This document shows positions 1-58,115 of a stretch of DNA of 64,000 nt, one piece after another. The notes under the pieces are model-generated. The model was given only the letters and a program-made list of their open reading frames with translations. It had not been told where the DNA came from and did not search any database. Made by a program: the position numbers and the translations under genes. The DNA lies in NCBI GenBank assembly GCA_963702475.1, contig CAVPCT010000004.1:64001-128000 (forward strand), written 5' to 3'. The stretch is from an uncultured Thermoleophilia bacterium. Lineage in GTDB: Bacteria; Actinomycetota; Thermoleophilia; UBA2241. Numbering within the stretch: the first letter of the stretch is position 1; each line of letters starts with the position of its first letter.

Positions 1-440
1 TCCACGACCTTCTCGAGCTCGTCCTCGTGGTCCACCTGGATCATGACGCCGGTGTCGATCGCGGCGCGCAGGGCATCCTCAGCCTTGTTGGCGCCGTTGA
101 GCACGATCTTCTTCGGGTCGGAGCCGGCCATCATCGCCACCGTCAACTCACCCAGACCGAACGCGTCTCCGCCGGCACCCTCCTTGACGACGACCCGGCG
201 CACGGCCAAGCCCCACTGGGCCTTCATGCCGACACACACGATCATCTCGTTGGGATAGTGGTCGGCGAACGCCTTCTGCATCCGCCGAACCCTGCTCCGG
301 ATGGTGTTCTCGGAGATGACGAAGAGTGGGGTGCCGTACTGTTCTGCGAGGTCGACGACAGGGAACCCCTCGACCTCGAGCAGTTCGTCCTGGTTGACCC
401 TGAGATACGGCCCGAGATCGGTCCACACGCTCGTTTCCAA
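1..440 (-). CDS. PLP-dependent fold III decarboxylase (diaminopimelate decarboxylase/LysA-like), 3'-partial
   Basis: Manual translation from TTG at 440 (GGAGG RBS): METSVWTDLG...DLAEQYGTPLFVISE...VGMKAQWGLAV (PLP Lys region)...GELTVAM...KKIVLNGANK. Runs off the window edge and is not in the ORF track. Confidence 0.8.
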   Translation of the reverse strand, partial: METSVWTDLGPYLRVNQDELLEVEGFPVVDLAEQYGTPLFVISENTIRSRVRRMQKAFADHYPNEMIVCVGMKAQWGLAVRRVVVKEGAGGDAFGLGELTVAMMAGSDPKKIVLNGANKAEDALRAAIDTGVMIQVDHEDELEKVV

Positions 441-507
441 CGCTCTCGCCTCCTTCCAATCGCCGAAGCCGGCGCAACCAGGGCCGGTCGGCACGATCCC
501 TCGCCGG

Positions 508-1173
508 TCAAGCGGCGTTTTCGGCCCTCTTCTCCGCGACAAGCTGCGCCGCGAGTGCGACGCCCTCTTCGGCCGTGCCGGCGTACCCGTCCGCACCGAT
601 CTGCACGGCCCATTCCTGGGACACCGGCCCGCCGCCTACCATGACGATGTAGCGCTCTCGGACGCCCAGCTCCGAGAGGATCTCCACGACCTCCTTCTGG
701 CTCGGCATCGTCGTCGTGAGGAGCGCCGACATGCCGATCAGGTCGGCGCCCACTGCTTCTGCTGCATCGAGATAGGCCCCGGCGGACACGTCCGCCCCGA
801 GGTCGTGGACCTCGAAGCCGCGGACCTTGAGCAACATGGCGAAGATGTCCTTGCCGATGGTGTGCACGTCCCCGGCCACGGTGCCCACGACGGCGACCCC
901 TGCGCGCTTCAGGCCTCCGCCCGCCTTCTCGATCTCCGGCTCCAGCACCTGCATGACGGCGTTGAAGGTGTCGGCGGCGGCGATGAGTTCGGGCAGGAAG
1001 CACTCGCCCCTCTGGAACCTGTCCCCGATGGCGGCCATCCCGGCGGACAGACCGTTCTCGACCGCATCCAGCGCGTCGTGGCCCTGAGCCACGACCTGTC
1101 GGGCGACGTCGACGGCGCGCTGCCCGTCCGCCTCGATGATCGCGAGTTTGAGATCCGCGTTGAGTTGGTCCAT
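508..1173 (-). CDS. Methyltransferase cognate corrinoid protein (MtmC/MttC-like)
   Basis: B12 cap domain (GLSAGMAAIGDRFQRGECFLPELI) plus DVHTIG (DxHxxG), SALLTTT and GG motifs; 221 aa. Confidence 0.95.
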   Translation of the reverse strand: MDQLNADLKLAIIEADGQRAVDVARQVVAQGHDALDAVENGLSAGMAAIGDRFQRGECFLPELIAAADTFNAVMQVLEPEIEKAGGGLKRAGVAVVGTVAGDVHTIGKDIFAMLLKVRGFEVHDLGADVSAGAYLDAAEAVGADLIGMSALLTTTMPSQKEVVEILSELGVRERYIVMVGGGPVSQEWAVQIGADGYAGTAEEGVALAAQLVAEKRAENAA

Positions 1174-1300
1174 CTTCCTTCCTCTCAGGTGTCGGGCGCG
1201 GGTGCCGGCTCGGCGTCGGATCGGACGGCGACCAGGTGCGACTCGTCCCGCCCGCAGCCGGCACCCCTGGCCCGCACGACTCCGGGCTGTCGCTGCGTGA

Positions 1301-2674
1301 TCAGACCAGTCGGACTCCCACCTCAGCCAGCTCCCGTGAGACGGACTCGCGGAGACTGACGTACTCCGGGCTGGGCTGCTTGCGATGGATGTCCCAGCAC
1401 TCCTCGTATTTCTGGCCGATCGACGCGGTGGCCAGCGTGCCCTCGTAGCGGTCGAGCAGGCGCCGGACCACGTCGTTGGCCTCTTTGCGCGTCATCCCCA
1501 CCGCCCCGTGGGCCACGTCGCCTGAGAAACGGGGCTCGCTGGGCGTGAAGTGATCGACCTGGGTGCCCTTGGCGCTGCCCGTGGCGGTGACGTGGCCACC
1601 GGAGACGACCGTCGCCATCACGTCGGCAGCGTTCTCGTAGAAGAACATCTCCGTCATGGGACCGTGAGCGGTGTAGTGGTCGACGAAGACGGGGAAGTGG
1701 CTGTTGCGGGTCATGGCCTGCACGCTCACCGACTTGGCCCAGATGGTCTCTCGCGTGCTGGTGCACCCGAGGTTGAAGTGCGTGGGGAAGGTGAGGAGGG
1801 CGTCCGCCTGCAGTGCGATGATGCCGCTGAGGAGATAGGCGGCGTTCGCCACGGCGACGCCCTCCGGCCCGCCGCAGTAGCCGCCGAGGATGGGGGCGCA
1901 CTCCGCGACGAGTCCTCCTCCCGTGCCGATGACCCAGGCCGCCTCGTTCAGCCGCTCATAGCCGAGCTTGAACTCGGCGGTGTGCCCAACGACCCAGGTG
2001 TCGCGGGTCGTCAGGCCGAAGGAGCTGCCGGCGATCTTGGCGACGTCGGACCCGGCGGTCGCGATCGAGTTCATGATGGGCAGCCCGGAGCGGTTGCCGC
2101 GGCGCAGGGCGTCCTTGCCGAGGCCGGTGACCCGCATGGCTGCGATCACCTCGAGTGGAGTCCCGGTGCGGACAGCGCGTCCATTGAAGCTCGCCAGACT
2201 CGGAGCGGTGATCGAGTCGGCCAGCGGCAGATACAGGGCGTAGGCCTCCATGATGCTCGAGTAGAGCTCCTCAGTAGAGACCGGCGCCCCGAGAGCGCCC
2301 AGCCAGCACCACGGCCGGGTGTCCGAGTCCGGCTGCCGCGGCACGAGGGTGCGCTGCTCCTTGCCCTCGCCGAGGACGATCCGGGCCGGGGCATGGTCGA
2401 GCGCGTCCCTGAGCTCGTCGTCCGTGAACCTCATGATGCGCTGCGAATCCGGGCAGTACAGGCCCACGTCCCGGAACAGCTCGAAGCCCGCTTCGAACAC
2501 GCGATCGGCAAGATCGTCATCGTGCGGCACAGGAGTGGAGGGATCGTACCCGATGTCGTGCTCCGCCACGACTTCCTTGAGCTTCGGGACCAGGACCTTC
2601 ATGAAGAAGTCCATCTCTTTGCAGTACCGGCCGGTCATGGCGCGGTCGATGACCTCCAGATAGCTGATCATCAT
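1301..2674 (-). CDS. mtmB: Monomethylamine methyltransferase MtmB family protein, non-pyrrolysine
   Basis: 457 aa from ATG 2674 with RBS. MtmB-like segments VPHDDDLADRVFEAG, PILGGYCGGPEG, TSTRET, GPMTEM, SAKG. No in-frame UAG. Confidence 0.9.
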   Translation of the reverse strand: MMISYLEVIDRAMTGRYCKEMDFFMKVLVPKLKEVVAEHDIGYDPSTPVPHDDDLADRVFEAGFELFRDVGLYCPDSQRIMRFTDDELRDALDHAPARIVLGEGKEQRTLVPRQPDSDTRPWCWLGALGAPVSTEELYSSIMEAYALYLPLADSITAPSLASFNGRAVRTGTPLEVIAAMRVTGLGKDALRRGNRSGLPIMNSIATAGSDVAKIAGSSFGLTTRDTWVVGHTAEFKLGYERLNEAAWVIGTGGGLVAECAPILGGYCGGPEGVAVANAAYLLSGIIALQADALLTFPTHFNLGCTSTRETIWAKSVSVQAMTRNSHFPVFVDHYTAHGPMTEMFFYENAADVMATVVSGGHVTATGSAKGTQVDHFTPSEPRFSGDVAHGAVGMTRKEANDVVRRLLDRYEGTLATASIGQKYEECWDIHRKQPSPEYVSLRESVSRELAEVGVRLV

Positions 2675-2819
2675 GCCCCTCTCTCCTGGTCGGTCCTGGT
2701 CGCAGAGTGAACGTCTGTTCTCCCGAGGCCGGAGTGCTGAAGCTCCGGTCGCCTGGCCGCTACCCTGCTGGCTCCGTGCCATCGCAGCCTGCGTCTTCAG
2801 GGCCACCTTGGCGCCAGCG

Positions 2820-2848
2820 ATGCTATACACCAAACGGATGGTGGTCAA
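2820..2848 (-). promoter_or_regulatory. Sigma70-type promoter for the mtmB operon overlapped by a putative TetR operator
   Basis: Minus strand TTGACC-N17-TAGCAT. The spacer contains the imperfect palindrome CACCA-N6-TGGTG (2828-2843), and a TetR gene is divergent. Confidence 0.65.
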
Positions 2849-3034
2849 GTGGGCGGGCCGGCAATTCCGCGCGGCGACCCCCGCGTCGTTCCGGCCGGGC
2901 CGCCCTCCCTCTGGGCGCTCTGAGGCGGGGAGCCTTGCTCGAGTGGCGACGGGGTTGGTACGCTGGCCAGGTCGTAGCCGGGTCCAACGTGCCGCTTGCA
3001 CGCCCGGGATCGCTCACGGAGGCAAGGAGGAGTT

Positions 3035-3670
3035 TTGGCAGTCGAGACACCGCCGGTGGATCCACTGGAGGACCTGCCGCCTACTGCCAGGCGAATCGTC
3101 GAGACGACCCGGCGCCTTCTGATCGAAAAAGGCTACGGCTACCTCAGCATCGAGAACATCGCCAACGAGTGCGAACTCAACAAGACGGCGATCCGCTACT
3201 ACTTCCGGAACAAGGCCGGGCTCATGGAGCTGGTCGTCGACGCCTGGATCTACGACAACATCCGGCATCTCGAATCCTTGTTCGCGATCCCTTCCGAACC
3301 TCTCCTGGGCAACGCTGACAGCGTGCACGCGTTCATGCTGGCCAAGCTGGAGATGATCAAGGACACGGAGACCTACCTGGCGTTTTTCGAACTCCTTCCG
3401 GCATCGCTACGGGATCGGCGGAACAGCGGCCGCATCGAGGATCTGTACGAATGGTCGGCGGAAGCCTATGTGCAGTTGTTCGCCTCGAGCCTTCCCGGCA
3501 TGGATGCGGCACAGATCAGGACCTTCTCCCGACTCCTCTTCGCGGTGGTCGACGGACTGGGTGCGCAGCTCGTGATCTCCTCGGAACGCTTTCCCCCGGA
3601 CCCGCCTCTCGACCTCTTCTCGGAGATCCTCATGGCGTGGGTGCGGTCTCGGCACACACAGAGCGCCTGA
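3035..3670 (+). CDS. TetR/AcrR family transcriptional regulator
   Basis: N-terminal HTH RRIVETTRRLLIEKGYGYLSIENIANECELNKTAIRYYFRNKAGL; TTG start after AAGGAGG. Confidence 0.92.
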   Translation: MAVETPPVDPLEDLPPTARRIVETTRRLLIEKGYGYLSIENIANECELNKTAIRYYFRNKAGLMELVVDAWIYDNIRHLESLFAIPSEPLLGNADSVHAFMLAKLEMIKDTETYLAFFELLPASLRDRRNSGRIEDLYEWSAEAYVQLFASSLPGMDAAQIRTFSRLLFAVVDGLGAQLVISSERFPPDPPLDLFSEILMAWVRSRHTQSA

Positions 3671-3734
3671 TACGCGGGAGGGCTGCAGGGGACCCCGAAA
3701 CGAGTCCCTCCAGACCTGAACGCCGGGCGTCCAT

Positions 3735-3923
3735 GTGCAGGTCATGGTGCTTCCCTCGAGCACCTGCAACTCGGTCCACTGGGAGAACCCGCAGTTCGTC
3801 GACATCTTCGGCAAGTACATGTCGACGACAGACGAGGCCGCACGACTCCAACTGGCGACCCAGTTGTCGCAGATCCAACAGGATGACACTCCGATGATCG
3901 TCGCGTTCGTCGCCCAGTCCTGA
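3735..3923 (+). pseudogene. C-terminal remnant of an ABC peptide substrate-binding protein
   Basis: NSVHWENPQF...DEAARLQLATQLSQIQQDDTPMIV resembles the C-terminus of the binding protein at 54934-56538 (NYSRWNNAEF...DEAERADLYKQAQALIQEEVPIM). No N-terminal part is present. Confidence 0.7.
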
Positions 3924-4225
3924 CTCCTGCTGAAGTGACCGCCCGACCGGCGGAGGCAGGGGCGTAGAGAAGTGTGCCTCGCCCCGGACTCGGCCCCCAC
4001 GCCGGCGTCGTCGAGAACGCAGCTCACCGAGTCGAGGCGGGCGCGACGCACGCCCCTTCGTCCGCACGAGCAGTGGGACATCGAATCGGTGGGCAGCGCA
4101 ACGTAGAGAACAATCTTCGGAAGAATAGTCTCAGGACGAGTTGATATGCTGCACCTAGGTCGTCTTGAAGAACATCTGGAGTGCCTGATTGTGTCCAGCA
4201 ACTAACCACTCGTTCAACTCAGGAG

Positions 4226-4254
4226 TTGCCATCGGCGTTCGCGATGTGTATCGT
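4226..4254 (+). promoter_or_regulatory. Putative sigma70 promoter upstream of the first dpp operon
   Basis: TTGCCA-N17-TATCGT in an AT-richer intergenic stretch. Confidence 0.45.
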
Positions 4255-4538
4255 GTCGCCGAGCGTCGCAGCGGCAACCCACGGTGGGCGACCGCGAGGC
4301 CGGCGACGTCCGCGGAATCCTGGCGATGTGGCGGGCACAGGGGTCTTGAGATTCATGCAGCACAGGGAGAGCAGGACCGACCGATGACCAGCGAGCGCGA
4401 TGCCTGCAGAACCGTCGCTCTCGTCACCCGACGGTGCGTGCGAAGCATGAAGGCGCACGCCACACGGCACTCCCGCCGTGAGTCGCCGTGGGTCACCAGG
4501 CCGATCGTCACTGAGCTGAGGGGCTGAGGGAGTCCGGG

Positions 4539-5486
4539 ATGCTCCGTCTCATCGGTCGCCGGCTGCTGCTCATAGTACCGACGCTGATCCTCGCGTCGAT
4601 ACTGATCTTCGCACTCGCGGAGGTGCTGCCCGGCGACGTGGGACGCTCCATCCTGGGGCCCTACGCCACCCAGGAGCAGGTCGAGATCCTCAACGAGCAG
4701 CTCGGGGCCGACAAGCCGCTCTACGAGCGCTACCTCACGTGGGCCGGCAACTTCGTCACCGGCGACTGGGGCGAGTCGCTCCTCCTCAGGGTACCGGTCT
4801 TCCCCACGGTGATGAAGGCCCTCGGCAACTCGCTCGTGCTCGCCGCCTTCGCCCTCATCATCATCGTGCCGACGTCCATCCTGCTGGGCGTGTGGGCCGG
4901 GCTCAGGCGAGACAGCGTCCTCGACCGCACCATCACCATCTCGACGCTCTCGATGACGGTGATCCCCGAGTTCGTGAGCGGCGTCATCCTCCTCTACGTC
5001 TTCGCGGTGTGGCTCAAGTGGCTGCCGGTCACCGCCATGCCGCCCGACGGCTCGCCCTTCTACGAGCGCCTCTACTACCTCATCCTCCCGGCCATCCCGC
5101 TGATGTTCCTCGAGCTGGGCTACATCGCCAGGATGGCGCGCGTCGGCACCGTGCAGGTGCTCGCCATGCCCTACATCCGCACCGCCGTGCTCAAGGGCCT
5201 GCCGCGGCGCCGGGTCGTCACCGGGCACGTGCTGCGCAACGCCATGGTGCCGACCGTCACCGTCATCGGCAGCCAGGTCGGCTGGCTGATCGGCGGCCTC
5301 GTGGTCATCGAGACGCTCTTCGTCTACCCCGGCATCGGCAAGCTCATGGTCGACGCCGCGCAGACGCACGACCTGCCCATGCTGGAGGCCGCCGTGCTCA
5401 TGGTCGCCATCATCTACATGGTCTCCAACCTCATCGCCGACATCGTCGTTGCCCTGCTCAACCCGCGCATCAGGATGGGCGCCTGA
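4539..5486 (+). CDS. Dipeptide/oligopeptide ABC permease (DppB-like)
   Basis: LPGDV, GDWGES and EAA-like YIRTAVLKGL...HVLRNA, IETLFVYPGIG. Confidence 0.95.
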   Translation: MLRLIGRRLLLIVPTLILASILIFALAEVLPGDVGRSILGPYATQEQVEILNEQLGADKPLYERYLTWAGNFVTGDWGESLLLRVPVFPTVMKALGNSLVLAAFALIIIVPTSILLGVWAGLRRDSVLDRTITISTLSMTVIPEFVSGVILLYVFAVWLKWLPVTAMPPDGSPFYERLYYLILPAIPLMFLELGYIARMARVGTVQVLAMPYIRTAVLKGLPRRRVVTGHVLRNAMVPTVTVIGSQVGWLIGGLVVIETLFVYPGIGKLMVDAAQTHDLPMLEAAVLMVAIIYMVSNLIADIVVALLNPRIRMGA

Positions 5487-5487
5487 C

Positions 5488-6508
5488 ATGGCTGACGAGC
5501 GCCCCACACCCTTCGGCCCCGAGCCGGACCTCGAAGGCCGCACCGGCCAGTTCGGCGACGACCCCGAGATGCTCGAGCTGCGCGCCGAGGCGGCCGCGGC
5601 CGGCCGCGAGGCCGTCCTGCCCGGCACCGGCGCGCGCCAGGAGAAGGTGCTCGAAGCCGACGCCGCGGCGGCGGCCGAGCAGAAGCGCCAGCGCCGCTAC
5701 CTGGTCCGCGCGCTGCTGCGCAGCCCCACCTTCATGACCGGCCTCGTCATCGTGCTCTTCTGGGTGTTCATGGCGGCCTTCTCCACGCTCATCACGCAGG
5801 ACCCCTACGCCCAGGACGCGCTGAACTCGCTGAAAGCGCCCGAGCCCCTCGCACTGGTTCGGCACCGACGACCTCGGGCGCGACGTCTTCGCGCGCGCCA
5901 TGGCGGGCGCGCGCACGGTGCTCATCATCGCGCCCCTGGCGACCGTCCTCGCGCTTCTCTGGGGCGCCGTCATCGGCCTCATCGCCGGCTTCTGGCGCGG
6001 CCTTACCGACGAGGTCATCATGCGTCTCGTCGACGTGCTCCTGGCGCTGCCGATCATCATCACGAGCATCCTCATCCTCTCGCTGCTCGGCACCGGCACG
6101 GCCATCATCATCGTCACCATCGGCGCCCTCTTCACGCCGGTCGTCAGCCGCACCGTGCGCGCCGCCGTGATCGGCGAGCGCGAGCGCGAGTACGTCATGG
6201 CGGCGCGCCTGCGCGGCGAGCGCTCGGCCTTCGTCATGGCCCGCGAGATCCTCCCCAACATCACCCAGCCCATCGTCGTGGAGGGCACCGTGCGCCTGGG
6301 CTACGCGGTGTTCACCGCCGCCACCCTCTCCTTCCTCGGCTTCGGCCTCGCCCCACCCAGCCCCGACTGGGGCCTCACCATCGCCAACCAGCGCGTCTTC
6401 CTGCAGATCGCCCCGTGGACGGTGCTCTTCCCGGCGGCAGCGCTGGCCTCCCTGGTGGTGGCCGTCAACCTCATCACCGACGGTCTCGGAAGGGTGTGGA
6501 GCAAGTGA
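5488..6508 (+). CDS. Dipeptide/oligopeptide ABC permease (DppC-like), one apparent frameshift near 5840
   Basis: Removing one C in GCGCCCGAG restores KAPSPSHWFGTDDLGRD; EYVMAARLRGE, LSFLGFG, PDWG motifs. Confidence 0.9.
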
Positions 6509-8762
6509 GCGCTGAAGAGACCGTCCACAGCAACAGCGCCGCACCGCAAGAGGAGCCCGCCGCCCTCGACGTCCGCGACCTCGAGGTCACGTTCCACCGC
6601 CGCGGACGCGACCTGCCGGTGCTCAAGGGCGTGACCTTGCAGATCGCCCGCGGCGAGGCCTACGGCCTCGTCGGCGAGTCCGGCTGCGGCAAGACGACGC
6701 TGGCCATGGCGGCGATGCGTTACCTGGCCGCCAACGGCACCCTGGACAACGGCCGCGTGCTCGTCGACGGCAAGGACGTCAGCACGCTGGACGACGAGTC
6801 GCTGCGCAAGTGGCGCGGCGGCAAGGTCTCGATGGTCTACCAGGACCCGACGCCAGGCGCTGACCCCGGCGATGCGCATCGGCGACCAGCTCGCCGAGGT
6901 CTACCACTTCCACGAAGGCCTCGACAAGAACGCGGCGATCGAGAAGGCCCGCGAGAGCCTGCGGCGCGTGGCAATCCCCGATCCGGAAGCCACCCTGCGC
7001 CGGTACCCCTTCGAGCTCTCCGGCGGGCAGCAGCAGCGCGTGGTCATCGCCATGGCGCTCTCCGTGAACCCGCGCCTGCTCATCCTCGACGAGCCCACCA
7101 CCGGCCTCGACGCCACCGTCGAGGCCGAGATCCTCGACCTCATCGATGAGCTGCGCGGGCGCATCAACGCCGCCATCCTGCTGATCACGCACAACCTCGG
7201 GCTCGTGGCCCGGCTCTGCGAGCGCGTCGGCGTGCTCTACGCCGGGCGCCTCGTCGAGGAGGGCCCGGCCCGCGACATCTTCACCGACCCGCGCCACCCC
7301 TACACCATGGGCCTCTTCCGCTGCGTGCCGCGCTTCGGCATGAACAAGACCGACGCCGCCCTGCAGACCATCCCCGGCACCCTGCCGGCCCTCGGCGAGC
7401 CGCTCGCCGGCTGCGTCTACTCGGCCCGCTGCCCCATGGCCAAGGACGTCTGCGTGCGCCGCGAGCCCGACCTCTACGCCTACCCCGGCGAGGCGGCACG
7501 CAGGGCTGCGAGACGGCCCTGGCCATGGACCCGGACCCGGCCGCCTACTCGCCGCACCACGCGAACCCTGTGGGCGAGGGCGCGCGCCACACGCGCTGCT
7601 ACTTCCCCGCCGAAGTCGCCGAGATGCCGCAGATGGTCCCCGTGCTGGCCGCCAGCCTCGAGGAGCGCGGCGCCCGCGAGGCAGACGTGCTCAAGATCGA
7701 CGCCGTCGAGCGCACCTTCAAGGACGGGCGCAAGAGGCTCACCGCCGTGCACCAGGTCTCGCTGGCCCTGCAGAAGGGCGAGACCTTCGGCCTCGTCGGC
7801 GAGTCGGGTTCGGGCAAGACCACCTTGGCCAAGTGCGTCACCGGCCTCCTCGCCCCCGACGCAGGCACGATCGAGTTCGAGGGTGGTGCGCTGCGGCCCA
7901 CGGCGGCGAAGCGCTCGCAGGACGCCCTCAGGGCCATCCAGATGGTGTTCCAGAACCCGGACTCCACACTCAACCCGGCGTGGACGACGCGCGCCATCCT
8001 CACGCGCGCCGTGCGCAAGCTGGGCGGCGCGCGGAGCGGCTCCGTGCGCGCCAAGGTCGACAACCTCTCAGCCGGGGTGCGCGTCGAGCCGCGCTTCCTC
8101 TTCCAGAAGCCGATGGAGCTCTCCGGCGGGCAGAAGCAGCGCGTCGCCATCGCCCGCGCCTTCGCCGGCGACCCCACGCTCGTCGTTTGCGACGAGCCCG
8201 CCAGCGCCCTCGACGTCTCCGTGCAGGCCAGCATCCTCAACCTGCTCGTCGAGCTGCAGACGAAGGAGAAGGTCTCCTACGTGTTCATCAGCCACGACCT
8301 CGCAGTGGTGCAGGTACATCTCAGACCGCATCGGCGTGATGTACCTCGCCGAGCTCATCGAGGTCGGCTCCTCGGAAGAGGTCTTCAGCGCCCCACACCA
8401 CCCCTACACCGAGGCCCTGCTCAGCTCCATCCCCAAGCTGGACTTCGAGAGCCCCAGCCAGCGCATCCCGCTGCGCGGGACGATGCCGAGCCTGAGCGAC
8501 CCGCCGAGCGGGCTGCCGCTTCCATACCCGCTGCCACCGCTACCTCGGCGACATCTGCGCGACCCAGGAGCCGCCCGAGCAGGAGACCGGGGACGGCCAC
8601 ATCTACGCCTGCCACATCCCGCCGGACGAGCTCCTGCGGCTGCAGACCGAGACCATGGCGAGCGGCGAGGGCGCGAAGCGCGTCGCCGACATGCAGGCGC
8701 GTCAGGCCGAGGAGATGGCGGCCGGCGAGGCCGCCCTCAGCGAAGGGCCAAGCGCCGGCTGA
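6505..8762 (+). CDS. Fused double-NBD peptide ABC ATPase (DppD/F-like), apparent frameshifts near 6853, 7492, 8310 and 8510
   Basis: Two Walker A (GESGCGKT, GESGSGKT), two LSGGQ and two HPYT plus Cys-rich C-terminal motifs spread over frames; GTGA overlap with the permease. Confidence 0.88.
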
Positions 8763-9092
8763 AGGTGCGTTGCCGAGAACGGCCGCCCCTGCGGGTACCG
8801 TCCTGAGAACGGCCGCCGTCTCGCTCGCGGTCAGACGGAGGGCGTCGAGGTCTACCGACGGGTGCTCAAGTCGACTGAAATGGGACGCACCCCCCAAGGC
8901 GTACCGACAGGGTCCGGCGACAGCCGAGCTGCCGGCTTCCACCTTCGCCACGAGCCCAGTGTGGACAGACGTGGTCAGTTGCCGCCTCCTGCGATCCAAC
9001 AAACCCGGCACACACGCAACGGCGGGTGGTCGAGAAGACCTCACCCGCGGGCGGGCCTGGCTGGCCCCGAGACGAGCCGCGACCGCGGGCCG

Positions 9093-9980
9093 TCAGGCGG
9101 ACGGTGGATCCGCCGCGGAGGCGAACCCCAGGCGCCGCCAGACGTCGTCGGCCAGTCCTGCTGCGGCGCGGCACTTGTACCCGAGCGAGTAGCGGCCCGG
9201 GATCGAGCGGCACACGGCGGCCGCGCAGGCCTCGACGAACGCCATAGCGGTCGCCGCGTTCGTCCTGCGCCCGGCGAGCGCCTGCTCCACCAGAGGGTCG
9301 CGGAAGGCGGTCTCGCCGACCGCGCCCAGCGCGACGCGCACCTCCCCGAACGACTCGCCATCAGCAGCGACGTCGACGGCCACGGCGGCGCTGAGGCGCG
9401 CCACCGTCACCGCCGTGCGCGAGCCGATCTTGGCGAAGGCTGTGCGCCAGCGCTGTCCGAGCGCGCGGAAGACGAACGCGGCGATGACCTCGTCCGGGGC
9501 GAGCGAAGTGCGACCGGGTCCGGTGACGATCTCCGCGACCGGCCTGAGCGTGACGCCGCCGCGGCCGTCCCACAGCTCGGCGTCGGCGTCGAGAGCGAGC
9601 AAGGCCGGGATGCTGTCGCCGCACGGGGAAGCGTTCGCTACGTTGCCCCCGACCGTGGCGGCGTTCCTGATCTGCATCGAACCGACAGAGCCGGCAGCGT
9701 CGGCGAGGCACCGGGCATGCTGCAGGAGCACGGGGTCCTCCTGCAGCTGCGAGAACGTGCACGCGGCACCGACGCGCACCAGGCCATCGGCCAGCGCCAC
9801 GCCGCGCAGCTCGTCGACGCCGCCCAGGTCGACGAGCAGGTCCGGGCGCAGATGCTCTTTCGTCATCGCCCGGACCAGGTCGGTGCCGCCCGCGAGCAGG
9901 CGGCTCGCCGGGCCCATCTCGGCCAGCGCCGCGGTCAGCGCCGCGCGGTCGTGGGGAGCCAGGAGGCGCGTCTCGTTCAC
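9093..9980 (-). CDS. Xanthine dehydrogenase family FAD-binding subunit
   Basis: LAGGTDL, QIRNAATVGGN, ASPCGD motifs. Confidence 0.93.
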   Translation of the reverse strand: MNETRLLAPHDRAALTAALAEMGPASRLLAGGTDLVRAMTKEHLRPDLLVDLGGVDELRGVALADGLVRVGAACTFSQLQEDPVLLQHARCLADAAGSVGSMQIRNAATVGGNVANASPCGDSIPALLALDADAELWDGRGGVTLRPVAEIVTGPGRTSLAPDEVIAAFVFRALGQRWRTAFAKIGSRTAVTVARLSAAVAVDVAADGESFGEVRVALGAVGETAFRDPLVEQALAGRRTNAATAMAFVEACAAAVCRSIPGRYSLGYKCRAAAGLADDVWRRLGFASAADPPSA

Positions 9981-10450
9981 CGCGCCTCCCCCCCAATCTC
10001 ACTCGCCGCGCGGACCGCGGCCACGATGGCCTCATACCCGGTGCACCGACAGAGGTTGCCGGCAAGTGCGAGGCGTATCTTCGCCTCGTCCGGATGCGGG
10101 CTCCTCAGCAGCAGCGCCCTGGCCGCCATGAGCATGCCCGGCGTGCAGAATCCACACTGGATGGCGCCGTGGGCGATGAACTGCCGCTGGAGCTCGTCCA
10201 GCTCTCCGTCGTGTGCGAGCCCTTCCACAGTCAGCACACGCCGACCGCGCACCTGCGCAGCGAGCATCAGACAGGAGTCCACTGCCCGGTCGTCGACAAG
10301 CACCGTGCAGGCGCCGCACTCGCCCTCACCGCAGCCCTCCTTGGTCCCGGTGAGGCCGAGGTCGCGACGCAGCACGTCGATGAGGCGCGCCGCCGGGTCC
10401 ACCTCCAGCCGCCGGGAGAGCCCGTTGACCTCGAACTCGAGCAGCATCAC
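9977..10450 (-). CDS. Xanthine dehydrogenase family (2Fe-2S) subunit
   Basis: GTKEGCGEGECGAC, QCGFCTPG, NLCRCTGY. Confidence 0.96.
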   Translation of the reverse strand: MMLLEFEVNGLSRRLEVDPAARLIDVLRRDLGLTGTKEGCGEGECGACTVLVDDRAVDSCLMLAAQVRGRRVLTVEGLAHDGELDELQRQFIAHGAIQCGFCTPGMLMAARALLLRSPHPDEAKIRLALAGNLCRCTGYEAIVAAVRAASEIGGEAR

Positions 10451-12750
10451 GCCTCACCGCCCTTCGCGGCCACCACCGCGACGACCTTCTCGGGTGTCAC
10501 GGGGAGGTCAGTGAAGGTCACGTCCAAGGCGTGGTTCATGGCGTTCACGACGGCAGCGGCCGTCGGCACGGTGGCGATCTCGCCGATGCTCTTGGCACCG
10601 TAGGGCCCGTCATCGCCCTCGTGTTCGATGAAGAGCACGCGCACCTCGGGCATGTCGGGGGCGTTGACGAGGTGGTAGTTCTTGAACCCGCCGGACGCGG
10701 GCCGGCCGCGGTCGTCCAGCCGCACCTCTTCACACAGCGCATAGCCGATGCCCATCTGTACCCCGCCGAGATACTGGCCGCGCGCCATCAACGGGTTGAG
10801 TGCGCGGCCGACGTCCGCTGCCACCAGCAGGTCGGTGACCCGCGTGAGGCCGGTGGCGATGTCGACGGTGACCTCCGCGAACTGGACACAGTACGACCCG
10901 GGATTGCTGCGCGCCGTGTGCGTGTGGTGGACGAAGACGTCCTGTCCGAGCCGGGTCTTGGCCGCCATGACAACCTCGGCGTAGGCCAGGACGGCGGCGG
11001 CATCCGTGCGGCTGCGCACCTCGCCGGCGGCCGCCACCAGCTCCTGAGCGGGCCTGCCCAGCAGAACCGCGGCCAGCTCGACCAGCCGCGCACGCAGGGC
11101 GCCGGCGGTGGCCTGGGCGCCGGCGCCGCACACGTAGGTGACGCGGCTGCCGTAGCAGCCGAAGTCGTAGGGGGTCGCGTCGCTGTCGCCCTCGGTGACC
11201 AGCACGGCATCGGGGCTGATGCCCAGCTCCTCGGCGACGATGAGCTGCATCAGGGTGAGGCAGCCGGCGCCCATCTCGTGGAGCGAGGCCGAGAGCGCGA
11301 CGCTGCCGTCCTCGTTCATGCGCGCGGCCATGGTGCAGAAGTCGCTGAACGACTCGGAGAGGATGCCGTTCTTGTGGGCCGCACAGGCGAGGCCGACCCC
11401 GGTGCGATACCGTTCGGCGCGCGCCGGCGTCCGGCGCCGCTCGCGCCAGCCGAACGCCTCCGCACCACGCCTCAGACACTCGCGCACGCGGGCGTCGCCG
11501 AGCGCCATGCATGTGAGCGGTTCGACGTCGAAGGGCTCGACCAGGTTGCGCAGGCGCAGGTCGAGAGGGTCGATGCCCAGCCGGCGTGCGACCTGGTCCA
11601 TACCGATTTCGACCGCCGTGAGGATCTCCGGCGCCCCGTAGGCGCGGGCGCCGCCGGCCACCGGCGTCGTGGTGTACACCACCCGCCCGTGGTGGCGGTA
11701 GTGCGGCGTGCGGTAAAGCCGGCCGAACTTGTGCGACATCATCTCGGCGTAGTCGAGCGAACTGGTGGCGTAGGCGCCGGCGTCGAGGACGCAGTCCACG
11801 TCGACGCCGGCGAGGACGCCGTCGCCTTCCACCGTGAAAGACACCGTGGATTCCGTGGCGGGGCGCACCATCGTGGCGATGATGGCTTCCTCCCGGTCCA
11901 GCACCAGCTTGACCGGCCGGCCTGTGCGCAGCGCGAGGAACGCGGTGACCGGCTCGAGGATGAACTCCTGCTTGCCGCCGAAGGACCCGCCCATGGGGAT
12001 CTTCACGACCCGCACCTTGGTGTACGGCAGGCCGAACAGGTCGGCGACCACGGTCCTGGCTCCGAACACGCTCTGCGTAGGACTCCAGATCGTGAGCTTG
12101 CCGCTCCCGTCTGCGAGCGCAAGGCAGAGGTGCGCCTCCAGAGCTGCGTGGTGCACGCGCGGCGTACGCACCGTCGTGGTCACGGTGAGCGTGCCTGCAG
12201 ACGGCGGTGGCGCCTGCCCGGCCTCGTGCACGAACTCGTGTACCAGGTTGCCGCCGACGTGCACCGGCGGGGCACCGGCGGCCAGTCCCTGCTCCGGCGA
12301 CAGCACCGGTGGCAGCTCTTCGAACTCGAAGCGGATCAGGCGTGCCGCCTCGGCGGCGGCCCGCGGAGTGTCCGCCACAACCGCCGCCAGACGGTCGCCG
12401 ACGAAACGCGCGGTGTCTGTGAAGATCGGCTCATCCATGGGGCACTGCGCCTGACCGGGGAGGATGCGGTACCGGCTGTACAGGGCATCCGGCGCATCCC
12501 GGTGCGTGAACACGCCGGCCACGCCCGGGACCACTTCTGCGAGGGACGTGTCGACGGCGGTGACGCGTGCATGCGCCACGGGGCTCAGGACGAGCTTCGC
12601 GTGCAGCATGCCCGGGAGCACGAGGTCGTCGCCGTAGGCCAGGCCGCCGGTCGCCTTGAGCACGGCGTCGCTCACGGCGTGGTCTCTGCCGACGACGCGC
12701 AAGTGGCGCCGCCCTTGAGCTGTCGGCCTATCGGACGGTCGATCGGTCAA
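10447..12750 (-). CDS. Xanthine dehydrogenase family molybdopterin-binding subunit
   Basis: GGSFGGK, RAYGAPE, GSR and GAKSIGE (catalytic Glu); 767 aa; no CoxL AYxCSFR motif. Confidence 0.94.
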   Translation of the reverse strand: MTDRPSDRPTAQGRRHLRVVGRDHAVSDAVLKATGGLAYGDDLVLPGMLHAKLVLSPVAHARVTAVDTSLAEVVPGVAGVFTHRDAPDALYSRYRILPGQAQCPMDEPIFTDTARFVGDRLAAVVADTPRAAAEAARLIRFEFEELPPVLSPEQGLAAGAPPVHVGGNLVHEFVHEAGQAPPPSAGTLTVTTTVRTPRVHHAALEAHLCLALADGSGKLTIWSPTQSVFGARTVVADLFGLPYTKVRVVKIPMGGSFGGKQEFILEPVTAFLALRTGRPVKLVLDREEAIIATMVRPATESTVSFTVEGDGVLAGVDVDCVLDAGAYATSSLDYAEMMSHKFGRLYRTPHYRHHGRVVYTTTPVAGGARAYGAPEILTAVEIGMDQVARRLGIDPLDLRLRNLVEPFDVEPLTCMALGDARVRECLRRGAEAFGWRERRRTPARAERYRTGVGLACAAHKNGILSESFSDFCTMAARMNEDGSVALSASLHEMGAGCLTLMQLIVAEELGISPDAVLVTEGDSDATPYDFGCYGSRVTYVCGAGAQATAGALRARLVELAAVLLGRPAQELVAAAGEVRSRTDAAAVLAYAEVVMAAKTRLGQDVFVHHTHTARSNPGSYCVQFAEVTVDIATGLTRVTDLLVAADVGRALNPLMARGQYLGGVQMGIGYALCEEVRLDDRGRPASGGFKNYHLVNAPDMPEVRVLFIEHEGDDGPYGAKSIGEIATVPTAAAVVNAMNHALDVTFTDLPVTPEKVVAVVAAKGGEA

Positions 12751-12826
12751 ACGGTCTCCTTCGCAGGCGACGCTCGTACCCGCGGGGTGGTGACTCCGGG
12801 AGGGTGGCGCTCCGGGGCGTGGCCGC

Positions 12827-14485
12827 CTAGATGAGGTTGCCGGGCGGCCGGTCTTCGGGCCGGCTCTCGTTGAACCAGCGTTCGTAGTCTACACGGACCC
12901 GGCGCGCCGTTGGAGCCGCGCAGGCGCCGCCCTCGGAGGTGCACTTGAGCGCGGCCGGCAGGGCGCGGCCCACAGCGTCGGCGACGTCCATGGCCTCGTG
13001 CAACGGAAGCACCGCCTGGTGGCCGGCGAGCGCCATGTCGGCGAACACGTGCGCCGTGCACGTGGCCGCCATGATGCGGCTGCGGCACGGCTGGCTGAGG
13101 CCCCCGGGCATGGGGTCGCACGGCATGCCGGTGAAGGCCTGCAACGTGAGCGAGGCCGCGTCCTCGGCGGCCTGCGGCGGTCCACCGGCCATCTCCACGA
13201 TGCCGGCGGCCGCCATGGCGCCGCAGATGCCGGCCTCGCCGCTGCAGCCGAGCACCTCGCCGGTCGGCTCGGTGCGGGTGTAGGCGATGGCGCCGACGCC
13301 GGCGGCCACGAACAGGCCGTGAAGCAGGGCCTCGTCGTCGAAGCCGTGCGCCTCCTGCACGGCGCTGAGGGCGGCGTACACGTACCCGCCCCCGCCGCCC
13401 ATGGGCCCGGGCACGTTGACGACGCCGGGCACGCCGGCGCCCGCACCGTAGGCGAACCGGACCGTCTGCGCCGTGATGCCGTCGGTGAGCTGAGCGGGCG
13501 TGCCCTGGTGGCGCGCCCAGCGGCCGGCGAAGTCGGGCTTGAACGGACTGGACGGTACCGCGACGTCCTCCTCGTACACGGCGCGCGTCTGGCGGCGCAT
13601 CAGCGCCGCGAGCTCGCGCATACGGTCCACCACCCACGAGCGGGGCCAGCCGGAGGCGTCCATCTCGTACTGGACGGCGACCTCCCAGAGCGGGACGCCG
13701 CCCTCTGCCGCGAGCTCGCGCCAGCGCGTCATGCTGTCGAACAGCTGCGGCTTGCGGTCGCTCTGAGAGACTACCGGGAGGAGAGGCCGCAGGAGAGCCA
13801 CGCGCACGGCCGCGGCGGCGGCACCGAGCGCCCCGCGGACCGCCGACGCGTCAGGCTCGACGGACAGCTCGTGGACGTACATGACGCCGCGCCCCTCGGC
13901 GTGCACGGCCAGGGCCGAGAGCGCCTCCGGCAGCTCGGCCCGCACCCGCTCTACGTCTTCCGCCGTCAGCGTCTCGTGCGGGTCCTGCACGACGAGCACG
14001 AAGCTGTCGCCGATGGTCCGCACGGGGAAGCCGTCGAACGACACGGCCTCGACCATGCCGCCTCCCGTGGAGTTCCCCGCGAACGCGACCATGAGTCCGT
14101 CCCGGCCGGTGAGCACGAAGCGCACGGCGTTGGGGTGGTCGCTCTCTGCGACGTGGGTGAAGACGAACTCGACCTCGACGCCGGCCTCCTCAGCCAGCTC
14201 GAAGCTGCGGAAGAGGCGCGGGTCGTCGGGGAGCATGCCGAGGACGCCGGCCACCATGGCCCTGTCCTCGGCCATGATGCCGAACGTGCCGGCGAACGAG
14301 CCGTGCTCGTCCAGCTCGATGCGCGCCCTCTTCAGCGGCTCGCCCAGCAGGTCGCCGGCGAGCCGCCCCAGGCGGCAAGGCCCGGCGGTGTGCGAGCTCG
14401 AGCCCGGCTGCATCACCGGTCCGAACACGTCGTTGAAGAGCTCGGGGTAGGGCGCGACGATCACGGGATGGGCCTCCTCAGACAC
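12827..14485 (-). CDS. Fe-S L-serine dehydratase-like protein (fused beta-linker-alpha)
   Basis: GSSSHTAG, HPN, STGGG in the N-terminal part; GCSGE and CDP...PC cluster cysteines in the C-terminal part. Confidence 0.85.
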   Translation of the reverse strand: MSEEAHPVIVAPYPELFNDVFGPVMQPGSSSHTAGPCRLGRLAGDLLGEPLKRARIELDEHGSFAGTFGIMAEDRAMVAGVLGMLPDDPRLFRSFELAEEAGVEVEFVFTHVAESDHPNAVRFVLTGRDGLMVAFAGNSTGGGMVEAVSFDGFPVRTIGDSFVLVVQDPHETLTAEDVERVRAELPEALSALAVHAEGRGVMYVHELSVEPDASAVRGALGAAAAAVRVALLRPLLPVVSQSDRKPQLFDSMTRWRELAAEGGVPLWEVAVQYEMDASGWPRSWVVDRMRELAALMRRQTRAVYEEDVAVPSSPFKPDFAGRWARHQGTPAQLTDGITAQTVRFAYGAGAGVPGVVNVPGPMGGGGGYVYAALSAVQEAHGFDDEALLHGLFVAAGVGAIAYTRTEPTGEVLGCSGEAGICGAMAAAGIVEMAGGPPQAAEDAASLTLQAFTGMPCDPMPGGLSQPCRSRIMAATCTAHVFADMALAGHQAVLPLHEAMDVADAVGRALPAALKCTSEGGACAAPTARRVRVDYERWFNESRPEDRPPGNLI

Positions 14486-14523
14486 GTGCGGTCACCTCAC
14501 AGGCCCGCGTTCGCGCGGACCGC

Positions 14524-15651
14524 TCACGAATGATGGTACCGTTCATCACTGCGGTACCGCTCCGCGGCGCGGGCCACGGCGTCGCGGTCCAGCTCGAAGC
14601 CCAGACCCGGCGCGTCGAGCAGGCCGAGCTTGCCTCTCACCGGCGTCAGGTCCGGTGCGCTCACCAGGTCCTCGGTGAGCAGCTGATGCATGATCTGGTT
14701 ACCCTCGGTGAGATTGGCGGTGCGCAGGCCGAGGTGGTGCTGGGCGGTGTCCGTGATGCCGCTCACGCCCTGGCCGTGCAGGCACACCGAGACGCCGGCG
14801 GCCTCGGCGACTGCGGCGGCCTTGCCGAAGGCGAGCAGGCCGCCGGCCTCGTGCGGCGACAGGACGATGATGTCGGCCGCGCGCTGGCGGCAGATGTCGT
14901 ACACGTCGGCGGGCGTGAACACCGCCTGGTCGGCGGCGATGGGCACGCCGACCGACTCCTTGACCTGCCGCAGGGCGGCGATGCTGTGCAGCGGCGTGGG
15001 CTGCTCGATCCAGTCCGGCTCGAAACGCTCCAGCTTGCGGATCATGCTGATGGCCTCACCCACGCTCCAGGCGCAGTTCGGATCGAGCCGCAGGCGGAGG
15101 TCGCCGATGGCCTCGCGCACGGCGGCGGTGTTGGCGAGGTCGGCCCGCTCGCCGCGCCCGACCTTCATGTAGATGACGCCGTAGCCGTCGGCCGCGAGCC
15201 GCTCCGCGTGCGCGGCCAGCTCGTCCGTCGTGTCGCCCTGCACGAAGCCGAAGTAGTCGACCTCGTCACGCACCGCGCCGCCGAGCAGGCGGTAGACGGG
15301 CTGGCCGACTGACTTGCCGAGCGCGTCCCACAGAGCCATCTCCACGCCGGCCAGGACGAAGTTGGCATGCCAGGGCGTGTGGTTGAAGCTCCCCAGGTAG
15401 CGGGCCCGCGTGACGAGGCGCTCCACGTCCCACGCCGGCTCGCCGACGAACAGTGGCGTGACGCCGGCGATCTCGCTTGCCACGCCCTCGGCAGGGAACG
15501 CGGCCACGGATTCGCCCACACCGGAGACGCCCTCGTCGGTCACGACCTCGACCAGGACGACGGCGCACCCGTGGTCGACGCGCCCGTGCCAGTGGTACGG
15601 CTCGAGGAACCCGAGGGCCAGGGGCGTGGCCGAGATACGTGCGATCCTCAT
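14524..15651 (-). CDS. Mandelate racemase/muconate lactonizing enzyme (enolase superfamily)
   Basis: GVEMALWDALGK, metal ligands D(PN), E(QP), D(Q); ATG 15651 with GGAG RBS. Confidence 0.9.
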   Translation of the reverse strand: MRIARISATPLALGFLEPYHWHGRVDHGCAVVLVEVVTDEGVSGVGESVAAFPAEGVASEIAGVTPLFVGEPAWDVERLVTRARYLGSFNHTPWHANFVLAGVEMALWDALGKSVGQPVYRLLGGAVRDEVDYFGFVQGDTTDELAAHAERLAADGYGVIYMKVGRGERADLANTAAVREAIGDLRLRLDPNCAWSVGEAISMIRKLERFEPDWIEQPTPLHSIAALRQVKESVGVPIAADQAVFTPADVYDICRQRAADIIVLSPHEAGGLLAFGKAAAVAEAAGVSVCLHGQGVSGITDTAQHHLGLRTANLTEGNQIMHQLLTEDLVSAPDLTPVRGKLGLLDAPGLGFELDRDAVARAAERYRSDERYHHS

Positions 15652-15770
15652 GGCGGTCTCCGTTGCCGGCGTTCGCTGGCGCCGCGGGTCCGGAGCGCCG
15701 GTGAGCCCCGCGAGCGGGCACACACCAGTCTCTCGCCGGCCTCCGGCGGGCGCAATGTGATGGGCCACAC

Positions 15771-15786
15771 GTCCCGGATTCGGGAC
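15771..15786. promoter_or_regulatory. Palindromic operator GTCCCG-N4-CGGGAC in a divergent promoter region
   Basis: Perfect 6-bp arms next to TTGACG; same GTCC-N8-GGAC motif as at 29481, 36794 and 43649. Confidence 0.6.
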
Positions 15787-15962
15787 TGTGTTGACGGTCA
15801 CCCGCCCCTCGCGCCGCGAATGACGTTCCAGCGCGCTGGACGGGCTGAGGCCGTCGTTGACCTGTTCCGACAGCGCCCGGCATCATGTGTCGCGGCCACG
15901 AACGTCACGGCGCCCCATCCGGCGGTGCCCGGAGCGACATCCGGAAAGGACCCTCCCACACC

Positions 15963-58102: not shown

Positions 58103-58115
58103 ACCGCCGGCCGGG

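Follow-up and report, generated by a model that had tools for sequence, protein, structure and literature searches.

A gene for a corrinoid methyltransferase of the MtmB family, with methionine at the column occupied by pyrrolysine (Pyl) in Methanosarcina barkeri MtmB, was found near the beginning of the window, i.e., the whole 64,000-nt stretch of DNA from an uncultured Thermoleophilia bacterium analyzed here (C4:64001-128000 in a genome of 4.3 Mb, 70% G+C and nine contigs). It is followed by genes for a corrinoid protein, a LysA-like decarboxylase with substitutions at two presumed substrate-binding positions and two MttB proteins, in a predicted operon that extends past the window start. 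The encoded proteins may remove methyl groups, in a corrinoid-dependent manner, from an N-methylated amine that stems from a basic amino acid, with the MtmB-like protein as the first methyltransferase (MT1), a reading whose chances we put at about even. The genes and sites concerned are listed below, with coordinates in locus L006 added for the two genes outside the window.

1301..2674, minus strand: non-Pyl MtmB-family corrinoid methyltransferase, 457 aa (Pfam, PDB match and AlphaFold model)
2072..2074, minus strand: ATG codon (Met201) at the Pyl column of M. barkeri MtmB (phmmer alignment and codon reading)
508..1173, minus strand: corrinoid (B12-binding) protein, 221 aa (PF02310 and PF02607; DxHxxG motif)
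1..440, minus strand: LysA-like fold-III pyridoxal phosphate (PLP) decarboxylase, first ~146 codons, with a TTG start 8 nt after GGAGG
C4:61504-63030 (L006 9504-11030), minus strand: MttB with an in-frame TAG (Pyl-MttB), directly downstream of the decarboxylase
C4:59949-61394 (L006 7949-9394), minus strand: MttB with Leu for Pyl (Leu-MttB), last gene of the operon, 51% identical to Pyl-MttB
2675..2995, no strand: divergent spacer and presumed promoter/operator, 321 bp between the mtmB-like and tetR genes
2996..3670, plus strand: TetR-family regulator (PF00440, E 1.3e-10), divergent from the mtmB-like gene

The MtmB-like gene (2674..1301, minus strand) was translated through its 457 codons with zero internal stops, and the protein matches the Pfam MtmB family PF05369 along almost the entire profile (residues 6-453, aligned to positions 4-449 of the 450 in the profile; E 3.9e-85, 286.8 bits). 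A phmmer search against the PDB retrieved M. barkeri MtmB (1L2Q, E 2.7e-58), in which GRPGMGV-X-GPET is aligned to NRSGLPI-M-NSIAT with the printed X, which we take to be Pyl202 of this entry, opposite Met. The AlphaFold model (pLDDT 93.4), for which an input alignment of 29 clade sequences was used, was matched by Foldseek to 1NTH (E 1.2e-44, TM-score 0.95, root-mean-square deviation 1.5 Å, 452 columns, 27% identity), and its TM-score against MttB/MtgB structures was only ~0.5. The pairing of the two motifs given in the initial annotation was upheld by the alignment with Methanosarcina MtmB, and the existence of an intact Pyl-free homologue that it had described was confirmed. The in-frame UAG that marks the active-site column of MtmB proper is absent from the focal gene, and membership of the protein in the MtmB family at large is near certain. 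No family was assigned to it by the NCBIfam profiles, and the ESM Atlas matches of the MtmB-like protein and the decarboxylase were only generically named MtmB and DAP-decarboxylase-family clusters.

Relatives of the MtmB-like protein were scanned in one genome per species, and 17 clade loci with 41-57% identity were found in Anaerolineae and other Chloroflexota, Dehalococcoidales, Aerophobetes, Bathyarchaeia and Methanomethylicia. When 26 clade sequences from several phyla were aligned, with five shorter matches excluded, RPGLPIMNSIAT proved nearly invariant; the motif persists in Chloroflexota, Aerophobetes, Bathyarchaeia, Methanomethylicia and the focal genus, and the Pyl column holds Met in 24 members and Gln in two (congeners G006 and G002). 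Judged from this alignment, the RPGLPIMNSIAT clade is a real one that crosses phyla. A quick IQ-TREE tree with SH-aLRT support and a midpoint root placed the focal gene and its orthologue in congener G020 as sister to a Dehalococcoidales sequence (SH-aLRT 97), and an Ile-type paralogue found across the genus formed a separate group of 14 rows. Among 1.84 billion representatives, phmmer returned 1008 relatives with E <= 0.001, of which 201 had E <= 1e-30. In the 127 full-length sequences aligned, which were the query and 126 taken from its best 150 relatives, the Pyl column varies widely (Leu occurs 22 times, Gly 15, Ile 13, Val 12 and Met 6, besides others), indicating that many non-Pyl MtmB subfamilies exist.

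Contigs of related strains from three studies (runs X1, X5 and X12) span the Met codon; this comparison, which was made on contigs rather than raw reads and had 122 further differences not displayed, lists no change at it. The nearest listed difference is a Ser-to-Pro change at window position 2089, where the contigs of X1, X5 and X12 have G for A on the plus strand and Ser196 of NRSGLP becomes Pro. All other clade members have the Pro of RPGLP, in contrast to the focal Ser196.

The neighbours of the clade members were counted over the 17 loci with tblastn and Pfam; several loci are short, so that misses in these counts are not absences.

14/17 loci: corrinoid protein directly upstream of the clade MtmB
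6/17 loci: two or more tandem MtmB copies
7/17 loci: class-III aminotransferase (L058, L059, L060, L061, L070 in part, L071 and L072)
3/17 loci: aldehyde:ferredoxin oxidoreductase (AOR; L058, L061 and L062)
3/17 loci: aldehyde dehydrogenase (L067, L070 and L071)
4/17 loci: non-Pyl MttB (L061, L065, L067 and L068)
2/17 loci: saccharopine-dehydrogenase-like gene (L068 and L070)

Since aminotransferases and aldehyde-oxidizing enzymes recur beside clade members, the gene contexts imply that the demethylated product of the clade carries a primary amino group. The same combination is present in congener G006, where the order is AsnC, corrinoid protein, MtmB-like, MttB, aminotransferase, further genes and AOR. 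About 1 kb upstream of this AsnC/corrinoid/MtmB-like operon, a gene for a baeRF (archaeo-eukaryotic release-factor-like) protein was also seen (L037 6171-7466, minus strand), and genes for a radical-SAM activase and a PFL-like glycyl radical enzyme come after the clade member of one Anaerolineae locus (L073 8365-11638, plus strand).

The genes around the focal mtmB-like gene were described in the initial annotation as a corrinoid protein and a fold-III PLP decarboxylase under a divergent TetR, with which the domain profiles agree. The DxHxxG motif of the corrinoid protein reads GDVHTIG, and the protein scores 195.6 bits on TIGR02370 and 200.7 bits on an MtgC-type model, both below the cut-offs. 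The decarboxylase gene extends 924 bases to the left of the window (full gene C4:63076-64440, 455 aa). In Pyl-MttB the TAG lies at the canonical site (SWVAGL-O-ADSK, residue 339) and the score on TIGR02369 is 673.5 bits against a cut-off of 525; Leu-MttB reaches 611.3 bits, above the cut-off of this 'trimeth_pyl' equivalog model despite its Leu. The genes thus run in the order mtmB-like, corrinoid protein, LysA-like decarboxylase, Pyl-MttB and Leu-MttB. All five are co-oriented, the gaps between them are short (~40-130 nt by coordinates) and the only terminator-like hairpin found stands after the last gene (18-bp stem, L006 7850-7889), which makes a single transcription unit plausible. No inverted repeat >=10 bp was found in the tetR/mtmB spacer and no sigma-70-like promoter in L006 7600-14800, a scan that reached window position 2800. 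The C-terminal domain of the TetR protein is weakly of the BetI type (PF13977, 22.6 bits, below the 27-bit cut-off), and its orthologue in G020, 69% identical, is also divergent from the mtmB-like gene.

The decarboxylase combines PF02784 (N-terminal barrel) with PF00278 (C-terminal sheet), its best PDB match is diaminopimelate decarboxylase (DAPDC; E 3.1e-57), and on the DokD model it reaches only 134 bits against a cut-off of 700. The PLP-Lys, GGG, EPGR and catalytic Cys of a fold-III PLP decarboxylase are all retained in its group. Four LysA-family genes are present in the genome, of which the housekeeping one (C3:685908) scores 478.9 bits on TIGR01048; the focal decarboxylase scores 293.5 bits, below the cut-off of 297.9. 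The motifs of the two groups compare as follows.

Housekeeping LysA of the genus (11/11 rows): helix NLRPM-LY; after Cys, CESGD; His motif HIGSQ
Focal decarboxylase and relatives: helix EMGDPFDPY; after Cys, CNAAD; His motif H-GGIP

The Arg of the specificity helix and the acidic residue after the catalytic Cys, both present in all 11 housekeeping LysA rows, are replaced by Asp and Asn in the focal protein; among the 10 rows of the decarboxylase clade, Asp stands at the Arg column in nine and CNAAD is found in eight. According to the accessible text of PMC7857480, R343 on the 3-10 specificity helix of DAPDC binds the carboxylate of diaminopimelate (DAP), the decarboxylases of basic substrates (L/ODC, ADC and CASDC) have an Asp on this helix that binds the basic side chain, and the acidic residue next to the catalytic Cys touches the side-chain amino group. 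Replacement of Arg by Asp, with Phe, Asp and Tyr as the flanking residues, leads us to predict a substrate whose distal group is cationic. Because the score lies below the cut-off, a better LysA is encoded elsewhere and the substrate-binding positions are substituted, the focal decarboxylase is judged not to be the ordinary LysA of the genome, a possibility that the initial annotation had named, together with a lack of conserved linkage, as fatal to its proposal. A second LysA-like paralogue, of the CDGGD type, is divergent from an alanine-racemase-fold gene and two non-Pyl MttB genes at another locus (L043, C2:117000-136000, positions 6531-12362), with an amino-acid permease ~4 kb further on. 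This arrangement recalls the Salmonella operon of ornithine racemase together with D-ornithine/D-lysine decarboxylase, as described in the accessible part of PMC13397332.

An orthologue of the decarboxylase was found in one of the 53 other genomes of the genus (G020, 88% identity), and the remaining ones match it only at 30-33%, through their LysA. In G020 the genes stand in the same order, with TetR divergent and then MtmB-like, corrinoid protein, decarboxylase and MttB with TAG (83% and 88% identity), and an intact SBP5/Opp transporter lies beyond TetR. Twelve metagenome contigs carry relatives of the decarboxylase at 53-90% identity. The full operon order is seen in L074, and L075, which begins within the decarboxylase, shows decarboxylase, MttB and TetR only. 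In L078 a class-III aminotransferase, 52% identical to that of G006, is directly upstream of the decarboxylase, in L082 a class-III aminotransferase is directly downstream, and in L077 a divergent DAO-FAO_M-GCV_T gene with the architecture of sarcosine/dimethylglycine dehydrogenase stands beside it; the remaining contigs of the 12 are too short to judge gene context. The decarboxylase thus stands next to N-demethylating enzymes of two unrelated forms and, in two cases, next to amine transamination. The proposal of the initial annotation that the substrate is a larger N-methylated amine or amino acid fits these neighbours (L077, L078 and L082). Methylated amines whose end product is a primary amine are indicated by two independent types of context.

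The genome itself decodes Pyl, as indicated by a tRNA-Pyl(CUA) at C3:641046 (ARAGORN), an adjoining PylD (209 bits, cut-off 150) and a PylS C-terminal domain at C3:657647 (314.6 bits, cut-off 178). It encodes five MtmB homologues, one with a single in-frame TAG (C9:301408) and four, including the focal one, without any stop. The canonical UAG-MtmB (L005 1408-2862, plus strand) has the motif GRAGMGL-O-GPETT, and a corrinoid protein gene of its own comes next (2911-3552, plus strand; together C9:~301300-303460); the other MtmB paralogues have Ser, Ile or a gap at the Pyl column. PF06253 (MttB) gave 75 matches genome-wide, of which 14 contain a single TAG and one contains two. At least six further non-TAG MttB matches lie in the window (20498-21910, 37000-38376, 40338-41723, 50774-52138, 56726-58189 and 58140-59562), the last of them split over two frames. 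Besides tRNA-Pyl, a tRNA-Sec(UCA) was found at C3:167171-167268, and two MttB matches contain a single in-frame TGA; given this tRNA, the organism probably recodes UGA as well as UAG.

Two of the other MtmB paralogues stand in contexts of their own. The Ile-type paralogue found genus-wide lies in the order DeoR, MttB, corrinoid protein, MtmB-like and choline/ethanolamine kinase (L040, C2:34000-52000, positions 5978-12956), with a dimethylamine methyltransferase gene ending at TAG adjoining the MtmB paralogue, and appears to be the better candidate for a choline-type substrate. The Ser-type paralogue (L039, C9:240000-258000, positions 3662-16069) lies among genes for an Opp ATPase, an M19 dipeptidase, a proline-racemase-like protein and a BKACE protein, with a class-III aminotransferase, a non-Pyl MttB and a class-I/II aminotransferase nearby.

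On the other side of tetR, the following transporter genes were recognized.

3690..3908, plus strand: C-terminal remnant of a family-5 solute-binding protein (SBP5), ~70 codons (tblastn)
4539..8633, plus strand: Opp/Dpp-type ABC transporter, two permeases and an ATPase region (open reading frames and tblastn)

The remnant matches two intact SBP5 paralogues left of the window with 56-64% identity over 63-73 aa, at residues ~462-538 only. The permeases were located at 4596-5471 and 5840-6487 by tblastn with ABC proteins of G020 and of the genome itself. The ATPase region (6562-8633) is readable only through several frame changes, the best query (from L039) passing through frames 1, 2, 1 and 2 and the G020 ATPase queries adding a frame-3 piece at 8511-8633; these changes may be those of a pseudogene or assembly indels, either of which would account for them.

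As we infer the reaction, the class of substrate, the order of the steps and the use of tetrahydrofolate, the operon would work under TetR control as follows. A methylated basic amino acid of the methyl-lysine or methyl-ornithine type would be imported, possibly via the neighbouring Opp/Dpp-type transporter. The neofunctionalized decarboxylase, with an acidic and aromatic specificity helix that lacks Arg, would convert it to the corresponding N-methylated diamine. The MtmB-like enzyme would then transfer N-methyl groups onto Co(I) of the corrinoid protein, its substrate being a larger methylated amine and not monomethylamine, for which Pyl would not be required, and the MttB paralogues may serve other methylation states. 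A methyl-corrinoid:tetrahydrofolate methyltransferase (MT2) and a RACo-type activator encoded elsewhere would close the cycle. Candidates for these lie in two places, a URO-D-family gene (C8:50583) beside a gene for RACo (C8:52485) and a Pterin_bind gene (C5:452332) beside another for RACo (C5:450617); none lies within the operon, and they are matched to the MT1 only as members of the same genome.

Several observations weigh against this demethylation of a decarboxylated basic amino acid. The mtmB-lysA synteny, which the initial annotation had proposed to test, is not conserved across the clade, as the focal decarboxylase was found in 0/17 clade loci by tblastn and Pfam, an orthologue of it in 1/53 other genomes of the genus, and a match to it at E <= 1e-90 in 0/400 other genomes sampled from the phylum; the link between the two genes is confined to one lineage, represented by the focal genome, G020 and one or two near-identical metagenome contigs. 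The decarboxylase of L077, 83% identical, has no MtmB within 6 kb, and neither the aminotransferase nor the aldehyde oxidoreductase by which the clade is marked in other places is present in the focal operon. The transporter beside tetR appears degraded, given the SBP remnant and the frame changes in its ATPase. With 75 PF06253 matches genome-wide and many of them on C4, MttB paralogues are dense around the locus, so that their adjacency is less specific than it appears. The residue R343 of PMC7857480 is presumed to be the aligned Arg because this is the sole Arg in that segment. Finally, activation of a non-quaternary methylamine without Pyl has no explanation.

The last of these difficulties would not arise if the MtmB-like enzyme demethylated tetramethylammonium or choline, for which the activation chemistry known for quaternary amines suffices. 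Trimethylamine formed from tetramethylammonium would then pass to the co-transcribed Pyl-MttB and the decarboxylase would be a passenger, an account that we consider possible and clearly less probable than the demethylation of a methylated diamine. It agrees with the activity of MtqB, the sole characterized non-Pyl MtmB in the accessible text of PMC13044021, with the UAG-MttB in the same operon (673.5 bits against 525 on TIGR02369) and with the weak resemblance of the TetR C-terminal domain to the choline repressor BetI. However, the primary amine implied by the class-III aminotransferases and aldehyde-oxidizing enzymes beside the clade elsewhere is impossible from tetramethylammonium, the choline/ethanolamine kinase adjoins another paralogue (L040) instead, and the decarboxylase is retained in the operon of G020 and L074.

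These aminotransferases and oxidoreductases are accommodated by another route, suggested by gene context, to which we assign a somewhat lower probability. A non-Pyl MttB would begin, and the clade would finish, the demethylation of an omega-trimethylammonio acid of the gamma-butyrobetaine or delta-valerobetaine type, to give gamma-aminobutyrate (GABA) or 5-aminovalerate, and an aminotransferase and an aldehyde oxidoreductase would carry the product on to a dicarboxylate; in the focal operon, a trimethylated basic amino acid would be the source of the skeleton, provided by the decarboxylase. The aminotransferases of GABA and 5-aminovalerate belong to class III and are followed by semialdehyde dehydrogenases. 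The gene order of L061 (MttB, corrinoid protein, MtmB, MtmB, aminotransferase and AOR) suits the stepwise loss of three methyl groups, and so do the tandem MtmB copies in L058-L062 and L064. On the other hand, the saccharopine-dehydrogenase-like and FAD amine-oxidase genes in L068 and L070 favour diamines or polyamines, and no gene for an acid-specific step was identified.

A further scheme, which we regard as rather doubtful, would assign the operon the complete anaerobic removal of all three methyl groups from a compound of the trimethyl-lysine type. The decarboxylase would first give a trimethylated diamine, Leu-MttB would take the first methyl group from the quaternary amine, Pyl-MttB the second from a bulky tertiary amine other than trimethylamine, and the Met-type MtmB the one left on the secondary amine. 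The many Pyl-MttB paralogues in the genus would in that case act on diverse tertiary amines, and non-Pyl MtmB proteins would be capable of demethylating non-quaternary amines.

It is improbable that the focal protein is a true monomethylamine methyltransferase without Pyl, or else an inactive relic. Its strong structural likeness to MtmB (TM-score 0.95) and the small monomethylamine activity of MtqB, as given in the accessible part of PMC13044021, speak for the former, and a canonical UAG-MtmB with its own corrinoid protein is already present in the genome, which speaks against it. A relic is unlikely because the clade motif is strongly conserved over phyla, and the gene is intact.

Least probable of all, and by a wide distance from the preferred reading, is that the decarboxylase is an extra LysA raising the lysine supply for Pyl synthesis, in the service of the neighbouring Pyl-MttB and unrelated to the substrate of the MtmB-like protein. 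Pyl is built from two lysines, the genome makes Pyl and has many UAG-MttB genes, and the decarboxylase is directly upstream of one; against this stand its score below the LysA equivalog cut-off, the much better LysA, and the occurrence of orthologues next to a DAO-GcvT gene or to aminotransferases, whose flanks, as far as available, show no Pyl gene. The idea was rejected on the specificity residues, where Asp has taken the place of the carboxylate-binding Arg and Asn that of the acidic residue next to Cys (accessible text of PMC7857480).

Non-Pyl MtmB homologues as such have long been known. What appears new here is the definition of the RPGLPIMNSIAT clade, its occurrence in a Pyl-decoding bacterium within one operon with a UAG-MttB, and a LysA-derived decarboxylase with reversed charge on the specificity helix. 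A text search of the literature found no paper linking MttB with trimethyllysine and none joining MtmB, aminotransferase and aldehyde ferredoxin oxidoreductase. The statement of the initial annotation that non-Pyl MtmB homologues are poorly characterized is still correct for most of them and has been overtaken for one, since the function of MtqB was published in 2026 (PMC13044021, accessible text). They form a sizeable family (1008 representative clusters) with, as far as that text goes, this one published function. The readable change of specificity residues in the decarboxylase narrows the candidate substrates, and the coexistence of Pyl and non-Pyl methyltransferases from two superfamilies in one predicted operon of a UAG-decoding bacterium bears on the relation between loss of Pyl and change of substrate. 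If methyl-lysine or a methylated diamine is indeed the substrate, the system would be one by which sediments consume such compounds anaerobically, a sink so far undescribed.

Among known systems, M. barkeri MtmB (1NTH and 1L2Q) shares with the focal enzyme the Pfam family over its full length, the fold and an adjacent corrinoid protein gene. The focal enzyme differs from it in being 27% identical, in having Met (ATG) for Pyl (UAG), in the gene order of methyltransferase followed by corrinoid protein, and in its decarboxylase and MttB partners. Another known system is MtqB/MtqC of Methanococcoides methylutens Q3c, a non-Pyl MtmB-homologue system for tetramethylammonium and choline published in 2026; the accessible portion of that report (PMC13044021) presents it as the first function of a non-Pyl MtmB, together with a tree of 1,061 sequences, most of them without known function, and an active-site logo of non-contiguous residues that bear no numbers. 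Both systems pair a non-Pyl MtmB homologue with a corrinoid protein, and in both organisms Pyl enzymes are at hand, those of the Methanococcoides strain taking the downstream methylamines. Compared by description, they differ in that the focal host is bacterial, with tetrahydrofolate rather than coenzyme M as the likely acceptor, and in that the clade has aminotransferase and AOR neighbours and, at the focal locus, a decarboxylase; the available part of PMC13044021 speaks of none of these for MtqB.

In the non-Pyl methyltransferases of the MttB superfamily (MtgB and relatives), loss of Pyl likewise accompanies a switch from a simple methylamine to a larger charged methylated amine, and the scheme of corrinoid protein, MT2 and activator is shared; they belong to a different superfamily (PF06253, not PF05369), and the Foldseek TM-score to MttB/MtgB structures is only ~0.5. 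The decarboxylase, for its part, shares with DAPDC the fold-III PLP architecture, the PLP-Lys, GGG and EPGR motifs and the catalytic Cys, and departs from DAPDC/LysA in having Asp for Arg, Asn-Ala for Glu-Ser after Cys, and H-GGIP for HIGSQ.

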